IMG/VR virus record: IMGVR_UViG_2534682307_000021
DNA length: 5,665 nucleotides
Source of the DNA: a virus
Taxonomy: Duplodnaviria > Heunggongvirae > Uroviricota > Caudoviricetes
Direction: 5' to 3' (one strand)
In this document: one piece after another, positions 1 through 5,665 of the stretch
Layout: every line of letters starts with the position of its first letter
How positions within the stretch are numbered: position 1 is the first letter of the stretch
The notes under the pieces: model-generated
Told to the model about the DNA's origin: nothing
Databases searched by the model: none
Seen by the model: only the letters and a program-made list of their open reading frames with translations
Made by a program: the position numbers and the translations under genes

Positions 1-58
1 AGTCGATCACCCTGGACACCGCCCCCCGTCTCATTCGTAGAAAATTTTGCTTTTCAAA

Positions 59-80
59 AAAGTTACACGAAAAGTTACAC
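59..80 (+). promoter_or_regulatory. Two direct 10-bp iterons AAAGTTACAC (59-68, 71-80) directly upstream of the terS-like gene; candidate operator or TerS/pac recognition element
   Basis: Exact 10-bp direct repeat with 12-bp start-to-start spacing, 13 nt upstream of the GAGG RBS (93-96) and ATG 103. The same motif recurs inside the downstream gene at the same 12-bp phase. Confidence 0.4.
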
Positions 81-102
81 CCCCTCAAAACGAGGTTTTT
101 GC

Positions 103-591
103 ATGGCATTAACGACCAAAAAAAAGCGGTTTGCTGATGCGTTATCAAGGGGCGCAAATCCCACGGAAGCCGCTATACATGCGGGATACAGCGAAAAGAC
201 CGCAAGGGTTAAAGGCTGGCAGCTATCCAACGATCCTGAGGTGAAAAAGTATCTTAAGGCTGTAACTTCTGATGTAACTTTTCAGGTTACAAAACCGAAA
301 AAAGTTACAAAGAAAGTTACCGAAAAAGTTACACCGGAACGGGCATCAATTAACACCATTGAGATGATGGATAACGGCCTACCCGACCCCATCAAAGCAA
401 TGGGCAGGATACTGATTGACAACATGGACACAGATCCAAAACTGGCTTTAGATGCCGCGTTTAAGCTGGCCCAGTTCACCCACCGCAAGATCGGCAGCAT
501 TGGGAAAAAAGAGGTTAAAAAACTCAATGCCGCTAGTGTCTACTCAAATCGGTTCCCCATCCCTAAGCCACCAACAGACTTAAAACACTGA
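103..591 (+). CDS. Terminase small subunit-like protein (Terminase_2 / phage P27-type N-terminal DNA-binding domain), 162 aa
   Basis: ORF with GAGG RBS 6 nt upstream. N-terminus KKKRFADALSRGANPTEAAIHAGYSEKTARVKGWQLSNDPEVKKYLK fits the conserved TerS HTH pattern (KQxRF..EY...N.T.AAI.AGYS.KTA....LL.N..V..YI) as I recall it. Size is typical for TerS. Not verified by a search. Confidence 0.7.
   Translation: MALTTKKKRFADALSRGANPTEAAIHAGYSEKTARVKGWQLSNDPEVKKYLKAVTSDVTFQVTKPKKVTKKVTEKVTPERASINTIEMMDNGLPDPIKAMGRILIDNMDTDPKLALDAAFKLAQFTHRKIGSIGKKEVKKLNAASVYSNRFPIPKPPTDLKH
262..334 (+). repeat. Array of six GTTAC/GTAAC cores at 12-bp phase inside the terS-like gene (two inverted, four direct; three full AAAGTTAC[A/C] iterons at 301, 313, 325)
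   Basis: Cores at 262, 274 (GTAAC), 286, 304, 316, 328 (GTTAC); spacing 12,12,18,12,12. Encodes a (x-V-T-x)n stretch AVTSDVTFQVTKPKKVTKKVTEKVTPE. Last iteron AAAGTTACACC (325-335) matches the upstream copy at 71-81. Confidence 0.55.
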
Positions 592-602
592 GGTAGCGAA
601 CT

Positions 603-764
603 ATGAGCGAATACATCACAGACCCTATTGATGTACTCACGGAAATCATGAACGACAAGCAGCAGTCGACCGAAATACGGTTACAGGCCGCCGCTGTTCT
701 GATGCCATATTTTCACGAAACACTAAACCCGTGCTTCCAGGAGGAGGAAGAAGATGATCTGTAA
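603..764 (+). CDS. Hypothetical small acidic protein, 53 aa (MSEYITDPIDVLTEIMNDKQQSTEIRLQAAAVLMPYFHETLNPCFQEEEEDDL); not in the supplied ORF track
   Basis: ATG 603 is 9 nt after GAGG (590-593). The ORF is open to TAA 762-764 and overlaps the next gene start (754) by 11 nt, suggesting translational coupling in a terS-X-capsid operon. No family recognised. Confidence 0.4.
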   Translation: MSEYITDPIDVLTEIMNDKQQSTEIRLQAAAVLMPYFHETLNPCFQEEEEDDL

Positions 765-1677
765 AAACATGAAAGGCGTGTCAGCAGTTCGCGCCGCCAG
801 CGTGCTGGCATCGTGTAAATTTAGCCATGCTGACGCTATAGAGATGACGAAAAGAAATGATCCGGCAGTATCGAAATTTCTTGAAAAATCCATCGTCAAC
901 AGAATGACTACGGATAACATGCCGTCGCTGGTGGCAGAGCCGATAGTAAGAGAGCTTGGCGAGTATATTTTTTCGCAGTCTGTACCAGGCAAGCTAATCA
1001 GCAGCGCGCTTAATCTTCCGTTTGGCGCAAAATTGCATTCAATATCAGGCAAGGGTAGTAAATGGCTTAAAGAAGCCGAAGAAATCCCTGTCAAAGAGGG
1101 AGAAGTAAACGAAAGTGCGCTAAAATTGTGCAAACTTGGCGCTATTGTGATGCTGAATAACGAGCTAATCAAATTTAGCACCCCTGGTACAAATTCAGCG
1201 ATCAGAGACTTGATCACATCGGAATCGGTGAAAGAAATAGATAAAAAATTTCTTTCCAGTGATCAGGAGGTGGCTGGCGTATCCCCTGAGGGCGTGCTTA
1301 ATGGTGCTGATGAGGCCGAAAACTTCATAGAGATTTTCAAAAAGCACATAGCGAACGGTAACACGCTTTCCACGTCGTCGCTAATATTGCCCGTAGAAAA
1401 CGCCTTACAGCTTACTGATGCTGAGTTCTGGCAGATAGAGCTTTTGAGAATACCGGTAATTGTGAGCGAACAGGCGGATCGCATGATGCTGATAGACGCT
1501 CAAAAGCTGATTATTAACGTTGAAGCCACGGTTATAACCCCAACTGATGAGGCGGTAATAAAAACCGAATCAGGGGCGGTTAGCCTTTTCCAGAATGACG
1601 CTACAGCGTTCAGGGCAATCACCTATTGCGGATGGCAAAAACTCGATAAGGCCGTCACCGTTCTGGCGAAAAGCTGA
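754..1677 (+). CDS. HK97-fold major capsid protein-like (Phage_capsid family), 307 aa, no N-terminal delta/scaffold domain
   Basis: Strong RBS AGGAGGAGG (739-747) 6 nt before ATG 754; in-frame alternative ATG at 769. Middle segment WLKEAEEIPVKEGEVNESALKLCKLGAIVMLNNELIKF and C-terminus GAVSLFQNDATAFRAITYCGWQKLDKAVTVL follow the conserved layout of HK97-family capsid proteins (compare recalled 80alpha-type YWVGEGQKIE...AFKLGVILPVTKEF and PVNLFEQDMVALRATMHVAL...AFAKL). Recognition from memory, not a search. Confidence 0.6.
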   Translation: MICKNMKGVSAVRAASVLASCKFSHADAIEMTKRNDPAVSKFLEKSIVNRMTTDNMPSLVAEPIVRELGEYIFSQSVPGKLISSALNLPFGAKLHSISGKGSKWLKEAEEIPVKEGEVNESALKLCKLGAIVMLNNELIKFSTPGTNSAIRDLITSESVKEIDKKFLSSDQEVAGVSPEGVLNGADEAENFIEIFKKHIANGNTLSTSSLILPVENALQLTDAEFWQIELLRIPVIVSEQADRMMLIDAQKLIINVEATVITPTDEAVIKTESGAVSLFQNDATAFRAITYCGWQKLDKAVTVLAKS

Positions 1678-1693
1678 TTTTTCCAGCATCTAT

Positions 1694-1719
1694 CCCGATA
1701 TGGGGATCACCATATCGGG
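1694..1719. repeat. Perfect palindrome P1: CCCGATATGG-GGATCA-CCATATCGGG (10-bp arms, 6-bp centre containing GATC)
   Basis: Read directly; the arms are exact reverse complements. Lies 16 nt after the capsid-like gene stop, with no following T-tract, so not a typical intrinsic terminator. Confidence 0.85.
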
Positions 1720-1722
1720 GAA

Positions 1723-1805
1723 GCACCTGAATCATCATTACCGTGATCAAGGGTATGTAAAGCCCACCAGCCTGATTAACGTTTAACCGGAAAAAAAGCC
1801 AGGTA
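1723..1805. repeat. 83-bp direct repeat DR-A, copy 1
   Basis: GCACCTGAATCATCATTACCGTGATCAAGGGTATGTAAAGCCCACCAGCCTGATTAACGTTTAACCGGAAAAAAAGCCAGGTA; 81/83 identical to copy 2 at 2260-2342. Confidence 0.85.
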
Positions 1806-1813
1806 TCCAATCT

Positions 1814-1835
1814 CGATATGGGGATCACCATATCG
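1814..1835. repeat. Palindrome P2: CGATATGG-GGATCA-CCATATCG (second copy of the P1 palindrome, 8-bp arms)
   Basis: Same arms and centre as P1; lies 8 nt after DR-A copy 1. Confidence 0.85.
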
Positions 1836-1899
1836 GGATACGGCGGTAACTGGTTGATATTTTCGAAATTCGCCAGCGGCGAACATCGGGGAAACCAGC

Positions 1900-1918
1900 C
1901 TAACCCGTTGATTCTTCC
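1900..1918. repeat. 19-bp conserved box, copy a (CTAACCCGTTGATTCTTCC)
   Basis: 18/19 identical to copy c and 16/19 to copy b; abuts the hairpin at 1918-1944. Confidence 0.7.
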
Positions 1919-1944
1919 CAATTTCCACAGACTGCGGAAATTGG
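1918..1944. repeat. Inverted repeat / hairpin CCAATTTCC-(9 nt)-GGAAATTGG
   Basis: 9-bp perfect arms with a 9-nt loop, read directly. Confidence 0.75.
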
Positions 1945-2026
1945 CGCGGTAACTTACTGAGATTAAAGCAAAGCGCAAAATTGCGTTGGCTGGTGGGCCT
2001 GATGCCGATAACTGGTTGGAATTGTT

Positions 2027-2050
2027 CCATAGTGCAAAATTGCACTATGG
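2027..2050. repeat. Palindrome CCATAGTGCAA-AA-TTGCACTATGG (11-bp arms)
   Basis: Read directly. Shares the core CAAAATTGC with a weaker palindrome at about 1971-1983 (GCGCAAAATTGCG). Immediately precedes box copy b. Confidence 0.75.
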
Positions 2051-2051
2051 C

Positions 2052-2070
2052 CTAACCCATTGATTATTTC
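2052..2070. repeat. 19-bp conserved box, copy b (CTAACCCATTGATTATTTC)
   Basis: 17/19 identical to copy c; followed by palindrome CCCCCA-T-TGGGGG (2076-2088). Confidence 0.65.
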
Positions 2071-2105
2071 GAAAACCCCCATTGGGGGATGTTGGGAAAG
2101 TAAGA

Positions 2106-2124
2106 CTAACCCATTGATTCTTCC
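2106..2124. repeat. 19-bp conserved box, copy c (CTAACCCATTGATTCTTCC)
   Basis: Followed by palindrome CCTCAA-T-TTGAGG (2130-2142). A further palindrome TGGTCAT-A-ATGACCA lies at 2174-2188. Confidence 0.7.
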
Positions 2125-2259
2125 ACAATCCTCAATTTGAGGAGATCGGAAACATCACCCTTCAAATTCTGAATGGTCATAATGACCACGCAGACCATCA
2201 AGGCAACCACAACGAACATCGTTACGGTTGGAGCTTTTACCCCACTGGGGAAAAGGTAC

Positions 2260-2342
2260 GCACCTGAATCATCATTACCGTGATCAAGGGTATGTAAAGG
2301 CCACCAGCCTGATTAACATTTAACCGGAAAAAAAGCCAGGTA
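2260..2342. repeat. 83-bp direct repeat DR-A, copy 2
   Basis: 81/83 identical to 1723-1805 (mismatches at 1764/2301 and 1781/2318). Followed by a degenerate P copy (2343-2364, GTGGGGATACCCATATCGGGG) and preceded by palindrome CCCCA-C-TGGGG (2241-2251). Confidence 0.85.
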
Positions 2343-2425
2343 GGTGGGGATACCCATATCGGGGAACATCCACCAGCTTCATAACGGATGGCCGGAAAAT
2401 GATAACGGTTAAAGCGTGTTGATCT

Positions 2426-2455
2426 TTGTTCGTGGTTGTTCGATATTGTTCGTGA
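2426..2455. repeat. Three tandem 10-bp iterons TTGTTCG-NNN (TTGTTCGTGG, TTGTTCGATA, TTGTTCGTGA)
   Basis: TTGTTCG at 2426, 2436, 2446 at exact 10-bp (one helical turn) phasing; a weaker copy lies just upstream (about 2416-2424). Confidence 0.7.
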
Positions 2456-2458
2456 AAC

Positions 2459-2482
2459 GGTGTAGTTAATGGTGTAGTTAAT
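2459..2482. repeat. Perfect tandem duplication of 12-mer GGTGTAGTTAAT
   Basis: Two identical adjacent 12-mers, followed by an AT-rich tract (2483-2575) containing palindrome GATAG-TTAT-CTATC (2556-2569). Confidence 0.75.
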
Positions 2483-2655
2483 TTCGCTGTTTTTGACGGA
2501 GTTGTTATTTGTAACATAGTGAAAAATAAAGACTAATCAATGAAATGTTATAAATGATAGTTATCTATCATGTGGAGTAGATTGGTCAGGCAAATAAGCT
2601 CTTGTCAGCGGCAGGGCGTTCTGCCGATAACCGTAACCGAAGATGATAACTGACA

Positions 2656-2976
2656 ATGGGTAAAACGAACGACTGGCTGGACTTTGATCAACTGGCGGAA
2701 GAAAAAGTTCGCGACGCGCTAAAACCGCCATCTATGTATAAAGTGATATTAGTCAATGATGATTACACTCCGATGGAGTTTGTTATTGACGTGTTACAAA
2801 AATTCTTTTCTTATGATGTAGAACGTGCAACGCAATTGATGCTCGCTGTTCACTACCAGGGGAAGGCCATTTGCGGAGTCTTTACCGCCGAGGTTGCAGA
2901 AACCAAAGTGGCGATGGTGAACAAGTACGCGAGGGAGAATGAGCATCCATTGCTGTGTACGCTAGAAAAAGCCTGA
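2656..2976 (+). CDS. clpS: ClpS, ATP-dependent Clp protease adaptor (N-degron recognition), 106 aa
   Basis: Translation [51 protein letters not shown]... matches E. coli ClpS as I recall it; conserved position directly upstream of clpA. Confidence 0.95.
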
Positions 2977-3006
2977 ATGCAGGCATAAAAATTGGGGGAG
3001 GTGCCT

Positions 3007-5283
3007 ATGCTCAATCAAGAACTGGAACTCAGTTTAAATATGGCTTTCGCCAGAGCGCGCGAGCACCGTCATGAGTTTATGACCGTCGAGCACTTGTTAC
3101 TGGCGCTGCTCAGTAACCCATCTGCCCGGGAGGCGCTGGAAGCGTGTTCTGTGGATTTGGTTGCGCTCCGTCAGGAACTGGAAGCCTTTATTGAACAAAC
3201 CACACCCGTTCTGCCTGCCAGTGAAGAGGAGCGCGACACACAGCCGACGCTGAGTTTTCAGCGTGTACTGCAACGTGCGGTCTTCCATGTCCAGTCCTCC
3301 GGTCGCAATGAGGTTACCGGTGCAAACGTTCTGGTCGCTATCTTTAGCGAACAGGAGTCGCAGGCGGCATATCTGTTGCGTAAACATGAAGTCAGCCGTC
3401 TCGATGTGGTGAACTTTATCTCTCATGGCACGCGTAAAGACGAGCCGACACAGTCTTCTGATCCTGGCAGCCAGCCAAACAGCGAAGAACAAGCTGGTGG
3501 GGAGGAACGTATGGAGAATTTCACGACGAACCTGAATCAGCTTGCGCGCGTGGGCGGAATCGACCCACTGATTGGTCGTGAGAAGGAGCTGGAGCGTGCT
3601 ATTCAGGTTCTCTGCCGTCGCCGTAAAAACAACCCGCTGCTAGTGGGGGAATCTGGTGTCGGTAAAACCGCGATTGCAGAAGGTCTTGCCTGGCGAATTG
3701 TTCAGGGCGATGTGCCGGAAGTGATGGCTGACTGTACGATTTACTCTCTCGATATCGGTTCTCTGTTAGCGGGCACAAAATATCGCGGCGACTTTGAAAA
3801 ACGTTTTAAAGCGTTGCTCAAGCAGCTGGAGCAGGACACTAACAGCATCCTGTTTATTGATGAGATCCACACCATTATCGGTGCGGGTGCAGCGTCTGGT
3901 GGTCAGGTTGATGCGGCTAACCTAATCAAACCGTTGCTCTCCAGCGGTAAAATTCGCGTAATTGGTTCGACAACCTATCAGGAGTTCAGCAACATTTTCG
4001 AGAAAGACCGTGCTCTGGCGCGTCGCTTCCAGAAAATTGATATTACTGAACCGTCGATCGAAGAAACTGTTCAAATCATCAATGGCCTGAAACCGAAGTA
4101 TGAAGCACACCACGACGTGCGTTATACCGCAAAAGCGGTGCGTGCGGCGGTAGAGCTGGCGGTGAAATACATTAACGATCGTCATCTGCCGGATAAAGCC
4201 ATTGATGTTATCGACGAAGCGGGCGCTCGCGCACGTCTGATGCCGGTAAGCAAACGCAAGAAAACCGTTAATGTGGCGGATATTGAGTCCGTGGTGGCCC
4301 GTATTGCACGCATTCCAGAGAAGAGTGTTTCTCAGAGTGACCGCGATACCCTGAAAAACCTCGGCGATCGCCTGAAAATGCTGGTCTTCGGTCAGGATAA
4401 AGCCATTGAGGCGCTGACTGAAGCCATTAAGATGGCGCGTGCAGGTTTAGGTCACGAACATAAACCGGTCGGTTCGTTCCTGTTTGCCGGCCCTACCGGG
4501 GTCGGGAAAACAGAGGTGACGGTACAGCTTTCGAAAGCTTTGGGCATTGAGCTTCTGCGCTTTGATATGTCCGAGTATATGGAACGCCATACTGTCAGCC
4601 GTCTTATTGGTGCGCCTCCGGGATACGTTGGTTTTGATCAGGGCGGTTTGCTGACTGATGCGGTCATCAAGCATCCACATGCGGTGCTGCTGCTGGACGA
4701 AATCGAGAAAGCGCACCCGGACGTGTTCAATATTCTGTTGCAGGTGATGGACAACGGTACGCTGACCGATAACAACGGACGCAAAGCGGACTTCCGTAAC
4801 GTGGTACTGGTGATGACCACTAACGCCGGGGTACGGGAAACTGAGCGCAAATCCATTGGTCTTATCCACCAGGATAACAGCACCGATGCGATGGAAGAGA
4901 TCAAGAAGATCTTTACACCGGAATTCCGTAACCGTCTCGACAACATTATCTGGTTCGATCATCTGTCAACTGACGTGATCCATCAGGTGGTGGATAAATT
5001 CATCGTCGAGTTGCAGGTTCAGCTGGATCAGAAAGGTGTTTCTCTGGAAGTGAGCCAGGAAGCGCGTAACTGGCTGGCCGAGAAAGGTTACGACCGGGCA
5101 ATGGGCGCACGTCCGATGGCGCGTGTCATCCAGGACAACCTGAAAAAACCGCTCGCCAACGAACTGCTGTTTGGTTCGCTGGTGGACGGCGGTCAGGTCA
5201 CCGTCGCGCTGGATAAAGAGAAAAATGAGCTGACTTACGGATTCCAGAGTGCACAAAAGCACAAGGCGGAAGCAGCGCATTAA
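3007..5283 (+). CDS. clpA: ClpA, ATP-dependent Clp protease ATP-binding subunit (AAA+ unfoldase, two nucleotide-binding domains), 758 aa
   Basis: Translation from ATG 3007 ([24 protein letters not shown]...) matches E. coli ClpA. Two Walker A motifs ([16 protein letters not shown]). RBS GGGGGAGG at 2994-3001. The ORF-track start at 2992 is rejected because it would place the RBS inside the coding sequence. Confidence 0.95.
3502..3513 (+). promoter_or_regulatory. Internal Shine-Dalgarno (GGAGG 3502-3506) plus in-frame ATG (3511-3513, Met169) within clpA; candidate internal initiation site for the short ClpA isoform
   Basis: SD-like GGAGG 4 nt upstream of an in-frame ATG at codon 169. E. coli clpA is reported to produce a shorter ClpA65 product from an internal start. 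Confidence 0.45.
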
Positions 5284-5307
5284 TCTGATTGTCAGGTAGG
5301 TTGGTGA

Positions 5308-5345
5308 AGTCCGTAATCTCGAAAGAGGTTACGGACTTTTTATTT
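5308..5345 (+). terminator. Rho-independent terminator of clpA
   Basis: 13-bp stem AGTCCGTAATCTC / GAGGTTACGGACT (one G-U pair), GAAA tetraloop, then TTTTATTT; begins 25 nt after the clpA stop. Confidence 0.8.
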
Positions 5346-5497
5346 ATGGGGTGGAACGGTGAAAACCCTATTTTTGGAGGTGAAGGTAATTTGTTGATAA
5401 TTAGTGCTGCTGGAAAAGGTAAGGATAAAAAAGGGTGACAGCAGGAAAATGAGATGGTTTTGCTTTATTAACAACGGGCTAAACGTGTAGTATTTGA
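5346..5497 (+). promoter_or_regulatory. AT-rich putative CRISPR leader
   Basis: AT-rich sequence between the clpA terminator and the first repeat. Possible -35/-10 pair (TTTATT 5464-5469, TAGTAT 5488-5493, 18-bp spacer) is weak and unverified. Confidence 0.35.
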
Positions 5498-5585
5498 GTT
5501 CACTGCCGTACAGGCAGCTTAGAAATTCACTGGTAACATACTCCACCCGCCCACCATGTTCACTGCCGTACAGGCAGATAAAATG
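5498..5585 (+). CRISPR. Orphan type I-F CRISPR mini-array: 28-bp repeat, 32-bp spacer, degenerate terminal repeat; no cas genes in window
   Basis: Repeat 1 (5498-5525) GTTCACTGCCGTACAGGCAGCTTAGAAA matches the E. coli/Yersinia type I-F repeat, including the CTGCC-GTACA-GGCAG Cas6f hairpin. Spacer 5526-5557 TTCACTGGTAACATACTCCACCCGCCCACCAT. Repeat 2 (5558-5585) matches the first 20 nt, then diverges (23/28). Location downstream of clpA fits the known E. coli I-F locus position. Confidence 0.85.
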
Positions 5586-5595
5586 CGAAAAAAAA

Positions 5596-5623
5596 GCCCG
5601 TACTTTCGTACGAGCTCTTCTTT
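5596..5623 (-). terminator. Bidirectional intrinsic terminator, strongest on the minus strand
   Basis: Minus-strand RNA: GCUCGUAC-GAAA-GUACGGGC followed by U8. Plus strand: same stem with one mismatch followed by TCTTCTTT. Implies a minus-strand transcription unit ending at about 5628. Confidence 0.7.
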
Positions 5624-5628
5624 AAATA

Positions 5629-5642
5629 TGGCGGTGAGGGGG
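5629..5642 (-). other. 14-nt match to the 3' end of tRNA-Ser(GGA) (CCCCCTCACCGCCA on the minus strand); not an intact tRNA within the window
   Basis: Plus strand TGGCGGTGAGGGGG equals the reverse complement of the recalled serW/serX 3' end. Sequence then diverges (ACCGCCTGAAATAAA, no T-loop TTCGAA) and instead forms hairpin GGCGGT-GAGGGGG-ACCGCC (5630-5648). Confidence 0.3.
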
Positions 5643-5665
5643 ACCGCCTGAAATAAATCTGACTT

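Follow-up and report, generated by a model that had tools for sequence, protein, structure and literature searches.

An orphan type I-F CRISPR4 mini-array with a spacer against cas1f in an Escherichia coli O157:H7-type chromosome

The closest described relatives of the element analyzed here are the orphan type I-F CRISPR arrays of E. coli. According to passages in two reviews (PMC5972030 and PMC8616872, citing Almendros et al. 2016, Nat Microbiol 1:16081), these arrays are expressed constitutively, have mostly spacers that match I-F cas genes, and elicit interference and primed adaptation against plasmids that bring in such genes. A passage of the review PMC8616872 adds that gain of cas-targeting spacers may have caused cas gene loss, and an excerpt of PMC3903273 uses the name CRISPR4.1-2, from the nomenclature of the Mojica group, for the single array of cas-less strains. 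The phenomenon was described and tested experimentally in 2016 (Almendros et al.; as related in parts of PMC5972030 and PMC8616872); the original sources are Almendros, Guzman, Garcia-Martinez, Mojica 2016 and Diez-Villasenor et al. 2010, which we follow through excerpts of PMC5972030, PMC8616872 and PMC3903273. A sequence-only reading of the DNA studied here had pointed to reports of orphan I-F arrays with anti-cas spacers, and such statements are indeed present in the passages of PMC5972030 and PMC8616872.

In strains with a complete I-F locus (LF82, UTI89, FDAARGOS_1284), the order is clpA, leader, CRISPR4.1, cas1f, cas3f (cas2-3), csy1-3, cas6f, serW, leader, CRISPR4.2 and infA; the clpA-proximal array of FDAARGOS_1284 has three spacers. 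Vercoe and colleagues reportedly found in 2013 that self-targeting spacers lead to chromosomal deletions in the type I-F system of Pectobacterium atrosepticum. Mini-arrays and solitary repeat units on mobile elements provide a further comparison; as described in part of PMC8616872, these have one spacer, a full and a truncated or degenerate repeat, and Cas proteins encoded elsewhere.

We analyzed a window of 5,665 nt, which is the whole stretch of DNA presented above, with an 88-nt mini-array downstream of clpA. This array does not differ in kind from orphan CRISPR4 arrays in general. It has the same clpA-infA locus, the same repeat and a homologous leader, its genome is without I-F cas genes, and its spacer matches a stretch of an I-F cas gene that has the proper PAM beside it. 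It is an element of an already described kind at an already described locus, of which the window shows the O157:H7 allele. Compared to the complete I-F locus, the leader is homologous, the first repeat is identical and the place after clpA is the same, whereas the six cas genes, all older spacers and both the second array and its leader are missing, and the spacer targets the operon itself. The P. atrosepticum system shares with this locus a spacer against own DNA and loss of the targeted region in survivors; by analogy, the orphan state probably arose in this way. However, the target here is the cas operon, and the product is an allele found in ~43% of complete genomes rather than a laboratory escape mutant. 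Unlike mini-arrays of mobile elements, the array in the window is chromosomal, retains its native leader at the ancestral CRISPR locus and is not directed against a competitor element. Relative to the passages of the two reviews (PMC5972030 and PMC8616872), our additions are modest: an allele-specific match, and the finding that the O157-type copy is intact whereas those of the K-12 and STEC276 types are decayed.

The mini-array and its chromosomal setting

Over positions 2550-5665, the window is 99.9% identical to O157:H7 EDL933, and over 1-2700 and 5284-5665 it is 100% identical to O157:H7 strains such as FRIK2455; judged from these identities, it is E. coli O157:H7-type chromosome. The mini-array sits in a roughly 3-kb chromosomal clpS-clpA block between two mobile elements and is carried by neither of them (Table 1).

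The left part of the window (1-2570) is not macB/cspD as in EDL933, being instead the right end of a 9447-bp element located between yljB and clpS (L006, 7103-16549). This element is bounded by a 21-bp direct repeat, the right copy of which occupies 2550-2570, and encodes an integrase, an HTH regulator, an Icd-like protein, a primase, a small terminase and a capsid-family protein. It is like a phage satellite (PICI-like). Its junction was present in only 48 of 5426 genomes. The segment of about 870 bp between the capsid-family gene and the right att repeat (1678-2549) contains no RefSeq gene; within it are only short unassigned ORFs, e.g., 1776-2045 and 2320-2517, both on the minus strand and with no Pfam match.

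On the other side, about 136 nt separate the window end from the start of a tyrosine integrase gene, with IS1, YfjI-family, inovirus Gp2-type and conflict-system genes after it. We take this island at the truncated serW to be the serW-integrated island of O157:H7. Its DNA begins at 5643, the alignment with K-12 and O55:H7 (both with intact serW) breaking after 5642. ARAGORN detected no tRNA in the window. Minus-strand Rfam matches at 5579-5665, to MicC (33.9 bits; gathering threshold 90) and to Thr_leader (24.5 bits; gathering threshold 55), were rejected as far below threshold, and they overlap the stem-loop of the serW terminator.

Table 1. Features of the window and of the predicted CRISPR RNA
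Feature	Position	Strand	Description
Small terminase	103-591		Pfam Terminase_2; 9447-bp satellite-like element
Capsid-family protein	754-1677		Pfam Phage_capsid; 9447-bp satellite-like element
clpA	3007-5283	+	Context gene 5' of the array; RefSeq annotation of the O157:H7 FRIK2455 locus, mapped onto the window
Intrinsic terminator of clpA	5306-5339	+	Between clpA and the CRISPR leader; 15-bp stem, then T-run; inverted repeat
CRISPR4 leader	5340-5497	+	AT-rich; from alignment with cas-positive leaders
Repeat 1 (R1), canonical type I-F	5498-5525	+	28 nt, GTTCACTGCCGTACAGGCAGCTTAGAAA; Cas6f hairpin CUGCC-GUACA-GGCAG
Single spacer, anti-cas1f	5526-5557	+	32 nt, TTCACTGGTAACATACTCCACCCGCCCACCAT
Terminal repeat (R2), degenerate	5558-5585	+	28 nt, GTTCACTGCCGTACAGGCAGATAAAATG
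Predicted mature crRNA, if Cas6f is supplied	5518-5577	+	60 nt: 8-nt 5' handle CUUAGAAA, 32-nt spacer and 20-nt 3' hairpin handle
Bidirectional terminator of serW	5588-5623	-	Terminator scan; conserved beside serW in K-12 and cas-positive strains
Remnant of the tRNA-Ser serW 3' end	5629-5642	-	14 nt; left junction of the genomic island; from alignment

The sequence-only reading had placed a canonical I-F repeat, one 32-bp spacer and a degenerate terminal repeat at 5498-5585, and all three parts were recovered at exactly these coordinates. A repeat search of the window yielded a 20-nt exact direct repeat with a start-to-start spacing of 60 nt; this spacing and the 32-nt spacer correspond to the period of type I-F arrays. 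R1 matches the 28-nt consensus, scores 50.1 bits against Rfam CRISPR-DR4 (RF01317), above the gathering threshold of 35, and is identical to the repeats of the array beside cas1f in cas-positive E. coli. R2 equals R1 over its first 20 nt (5558-5577) and diverges over the remaining 8 nt (ATAAAATG). Its score of 29.7 bits (E = 1e-4) lies under the same gathering threshold, as befits the degenerate terminal copy that had been proposed. A source for the 8-nt tail was not found in the cas-positive loci examined. Both repeats are predicted to form the same hairpin (-8.6 kcal/mol each; fold .....(((((.....)))))........), which is of the Cas6f type, with a 5-bp stem, a 5-nt loop and its end at repeat position 20. 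A chance repeat was considered and rejected on the basis of the Rfam score, the 60-nt spacing, the identity of R1 with the repeats of cas-positive arrays and the homologous leader.

The array starts 214 nt after the clpA stop (5283), downstream of this gene as first read. A short AT-rich leader had likewise been proposed, and the GC content of 5340-5497 is 37%, compared to 53% in clpA. This segment is homologous to the leader in cas-positive strains; its repeat-proximal ~110 nt are nearly invariant between the window, the clpA-proximal I-F array of these strains and an E. ruysiae-like contig. Both features of a type I-F leader, AT richness and homology to leaders of active arrays, are therefore present. 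A 68-aa minus-strand ORF at 5340-5546, which overlaps leader and array, was judged to be spurious. No promoter in the leader passed a strict sigma-70 scan and no convincing candidate was seen by eye, a result that counts against the reading of the array that we favor below. The terminator of serW is bidirectional, and a plus-strand CRISPR transcript could end there as well.

The spacer and its match to cas1f

In 5426 complete E. coli genomes, the 32-mer matched two types of places, namely the mini-array of other strains and a gene annotated as cas1f. The spacer is the antisense of cas1f codons 35-45, with 31 of 32 nt identical in E. coli strains that keep I-F (E = 6e-6 against 28 Gb). A part of PMC3506596 gives GG as the PAM for I-F in E. 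coli, placed leader-proximally on the target strand, which equals CC 5' of the protospacer. CC directly preceded the cas1f protospacer in every case (E. coli, E. ruysiae and a metagenome contig). Like anti-cas orphan CRISPR4 arrays, the array in the window thus has a spacer that matches an I-F cas gene beside an I-F PAM. The sequence-only reading had offered the anti-cas target as a candidate, to be checked against I-F cas genes with an adjacent GG and to be given up if none matched; cas1f was matched, with GG present on the target strand.

The sole mismatch to E. coli cas1f alleles is at spacer position 4 (window 5529), where the spacer has A and cas1f has G, a synonymous difference in a serine codon (AGT/AGC). 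In contrast to this 31/32 match, cas1f of Escherichia ruysiae is matched at 32 of 32 nt with a CC PAM (the same 34-mer, in species-representative genomes). An exact search with CC plus the spacer returned one metagenome contig (L007), also a 32/32 match, on which clpA is followed by a 12-spacer array, cas1f, cas3f and csy genes; its clpA is 96.4% identical to clpA of the window. When a 142-nt cas1f query carrying the A of the spacer was used, the best match across the 241 cas1f-positive E. coli genomes was 141/142, and no perfectly matching allele was found among these 241 of the 5426 complete genomes. The synonymous G at protospacer seed position 4 occurs in all 241 I-F operons, in the lineages of ~98.7% and ~91.6% identity alike, and in the divergent E. 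coli cas-F lineage position 10 is mismatched as well. Compared to other orphan CRISPR4 arrays, the O157-type allele is thus distinguished by a spacer that equals E. ruysiae-type cas1f and is 1 nt off all sampled E. coli cas1f (with the additional mismatch in the divergent lineage).

We also considered that the 32 nt might be a colinear remnant of a deleted cas1f. This was rejected, as the sequence is inverted relative to the native gene, is exactly 32 nt long, lies between repeats and starts right after the PAM; its inversion, exact length and position between repeats imply an acquired spacer rather than a deletion fragment. Another reading, the usual starting assumption for a CRISPR spacer, is an ordinary phage or plasmid memory whose likeness to cas1f is incidental, and the database comparisons that had been suggested for the spacer bear on it directly. 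A search of 50,697 phage records returned no match at E values up to 10, and 72,556 plasmids gave only chance-level matches of 17-26 nt, one of them being itself a cas1f gene, whereas cas1f is matched at 31-32 of 32 nt with the correct PAM. Such a memory is so improbable that it hardly needs to be entertained. In the spacer search of E. coli genomes, up to four genomes had two matching places, and one match was on a plasmid. These genomes might contain the anti-cas1 spacer and cas1f together, or a duplicated array.

Orphan status and occurrence among E. coli genomes

As had been read from the letters, no cas gene is present within the window. Beyond it, in the 100%-identical O157:H7 genomes, the tyrosine integrase and the serW island were found rather than cas genes. 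An I-F operon was detected in 241 of the 5426 complete E. coli genomes, and the same count was obtained with the 8.1-kb operon (megablast) and with csy1-cas6f (sensitive blastn). The exact spacer was present in 546 genomes. Together, the 241 cas1f genomes and the 546 exact-spacer genomes are 787 distinct genomes with one place each, i.e., the overlap is zero, and neither the cas1f fragment, the 8.1-kb operon nor csy1-cas6f was found in any of the 546, an absence that holds down to roughly 65-70% DNA identity. Because cas genes are missing from the window, its flanks and the exact-spacer genomes, the array is a true orphan.

The sequence-only reading had allowed for intact I-F cas genes just beyond the window or elsewhere in the genome, which the array would then serve. 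With an integrase-led serW island as the flank in genomes that are 100% identical over 1-2700 and 5284-5665, and with no member shared by the 241 cas-positive and the 546 spacer-positive genomes, a non-orphan array is very unlikely. Having no adjacent cognate cas genes, the array falls outside the class of complete I-F systems. Its location is that of anti-cas orphan CRISPR4 arrays, the clpA-infA locus in a genome without I-F cas genes; here, an island separates it from serW and infA. All copies of the E. coli-type I-F operon are chromosomal and occur at the clpA-infA CRISPR4 locus only. In cas-positive FDAARGOS_1284 (L001, 6279-7586), csy1 contains an internal stop and carries a pseudogene annotation, and strain SZQ1 has only about half of the I-F operon. 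The I-F systems of the 241 genomes counted as cas-positive need not all work.

Among the 5426 complete E. coli genomes, 2331 (43%) had the 88-nt mini-array. Copies with at least 99% identity to that of the window were found in 535 genomes (O157:H7, O145:H28 and others). A larger group of 1509 genomes, with 95-99% identity, is exemplified by the K-12 type, in which the spacer carries T6A and R2 carries G17A. With 1-2 changes, the O157 spacer occurs in K-12 and about 43% of the complete genomes. The remaining class (328 genomes, 90-95% identity) is exemplified by the STEC276 type, with a 4-nt deletion in the anti-cas1 spacer. The G17A change is predicted to destroy the R2 hairpin (from -8.6 to -1.4 kcal/mol), which is intact in the O157-type copy; in the latter, the neighboring serW is disrupted by the island. 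In addition, O55:H7 DEC5D has a 1-nt deletion in the spacer. The occurrence of decayed copies in many lineages argues against strong species-wide selection for function.

Several orphan arrays have gained further spacers. In strain 504239 (L005, 1440-1530), an extra leader-side spacer matches cas3f at 31 of 32 nt with a CC PAM, and STEC276 (L009, 283-470) has two extra leader-side spacers against cas3f, on opposite strands and each with 1 mismatch to a B1-type or E. ruysiae-type allele. These anti-cas3f protospacers lie about 1.5-2.2 kb from the cas1f protospacer and have CC PAMs. Their leader-side position implies that the extra spacers are newer than the anti-cas1 spacer. I-F priming yields bidirectional, both-strand acquisition near the primed protospacer, and the pattern of the anti-cas3f spacers indicates indirectly that the anti-cas1 spacer has on at least one occasion guided priming. 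The best matches of these extra spacers are to different cas-F lineages (B1-type E. coli or E. ruysiae-like), which hints at meetings with more than one I-F variant. Strain 504239 also contains tandem units of ~175 bp between the orphan array and serW (L005, about 1700-2320); each unit consists of the serW terminator, the serW 3' end and RtT-like sequence, and an RtT sRNA is annotated there.

Origin, expected behavior and meaning of the array

We consider it likely that the array is an orphan I-F CRISPR4.1-2 left after loss of the cas operon, with a spacer from the system's own cas1f, and that it is inert alone and acts against cas genes when an I-F operon enters. The I-F adaptation machinery would have taken the spacer from cas1f of its own system. 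In an O157:H7-type cell, without I-F Cas proteins, the array would be inert. If an I-F cas operon enters, Cas6f may cut the transcript after 5517 and 5577, at the base of both hairpins. The site of Cas6f/Csy4 cleavage is the 3' base of the repeat hairpin, and the ends of the predicted crRNA follow from this established site. Incoming Csy proteins would then load the 60-nt crRNA, the Csy-crRNA complex would bind the CC-flanked protospacer in the incoming cas1f, and Cas2-3 would degrade the carrier DNA and/or primed adaptation would add anti-cas spacers; for expression, interference and priming, this scheme draws on the literature. What the sequence comparisons show directly is how the array is built, its target and PAM, its orphan status and its distribution among genomes. 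The 8-nt tail of R2 would be irrelevant, because it could only become the 5' handle of a nonexistent spacer.

The outcome may depend on the cas1f allele. In type I-F, the seed comprises positions 1-5, 7 and 8, position 6 being unpaired, and from these seed positions different results are expected: direct interference with E. ruysiae-type cas1f, which is matched perfectly, and weaker interference, mostly priming, with E. coli alleles, which have the seed mismatch at position 4. What counts against the favored reading is that all 241 E. coli alleles differ from the spacer, with the mismatch falling in the seed. Moreover, since E. coli-type I-F operons occur only at the same chromosomal locus, an operon that came back naturally through homologous replacement would displace the orphan array.

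Some of these observations would also fit a neutral fossil, i.e., the scar of an autoimmune event whose survivors deleted the cas operon, with no selected function now and an O157 copy that has just not decayed yet. Degenerative variants are common (the K-12-type R2 hairpin, the 4-nt spacer deletion in about 328 genomes and the 1-nt deletion in DEC5D), a fact that weighs against the favored reading, and allelic replacement at the single operon locus would bypass the array. The sole spacer stands right after the leader-proximal repeat, and repeat identity ends at R2 position 20, shortly before the serW terminator; this arrangement could stem from a deletion in which the target and everything older were lost. 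A passage in PMC8616872 is compatible with such a history, as it states that cas-targeting spacers may have caused gene loss. On the other hand, the 88-nt array has been kept in about 43% of genomes and is pristine in 535 of them, in several serotypes. Other lineages gained anti-cas3f spacers after the anti-cas1 spacer, though possibly before cas loss, and interference by native orphan arrays has been published (according to passages in PMC5972030 and PMC8616872). We regard a neutral fossil as unlikely. It is compatible with the same anatomy and concerns present selection, not capability. We also rejected the idea that the two arrays of a complete locus recombined to form the orphan array, given that serW lies between them in cas-positive strains, yet is kept beside the orphan array.

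If the favored reading of an anti-cas orphan array is correct, bringing an I-F system of E. coli or E. ruysiae into O157-type (perhaps K-12-type) strains would be expected to result in self-destruction or in priming against the cas plasmid. The array is also a stable typing marker, with minor practical value. A more tentative idea, which we hold to be rather doubtful, is that the O157-type spacer is the unmutated original, matching an E. ruysiae-like cas1f base for base with its PAM. If so, the persisting E. coli I-F operons would be escape variants of a species-wide anti-cas "vaccination"; alternatively, this "vaccination" would have been raised against a foreign, E. ruysiae-like operon. Orphan arrays would then differ in competence, the O157 copy being intact, the K-12 copy having a broken 3' hairpin, and the STEC276 copy having a frame-shifted spacer along with newer anti-cas3f spacers. 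The allele-specific seed mismatch could provide a modest, testable example of a cas gene escaping through a synonymous mutation. In its wider meaning, such an array would be a CRISPR memory against CRISPR itself, which would block the regain of a constitutively active immune system that would limit horizontal gene transfer.
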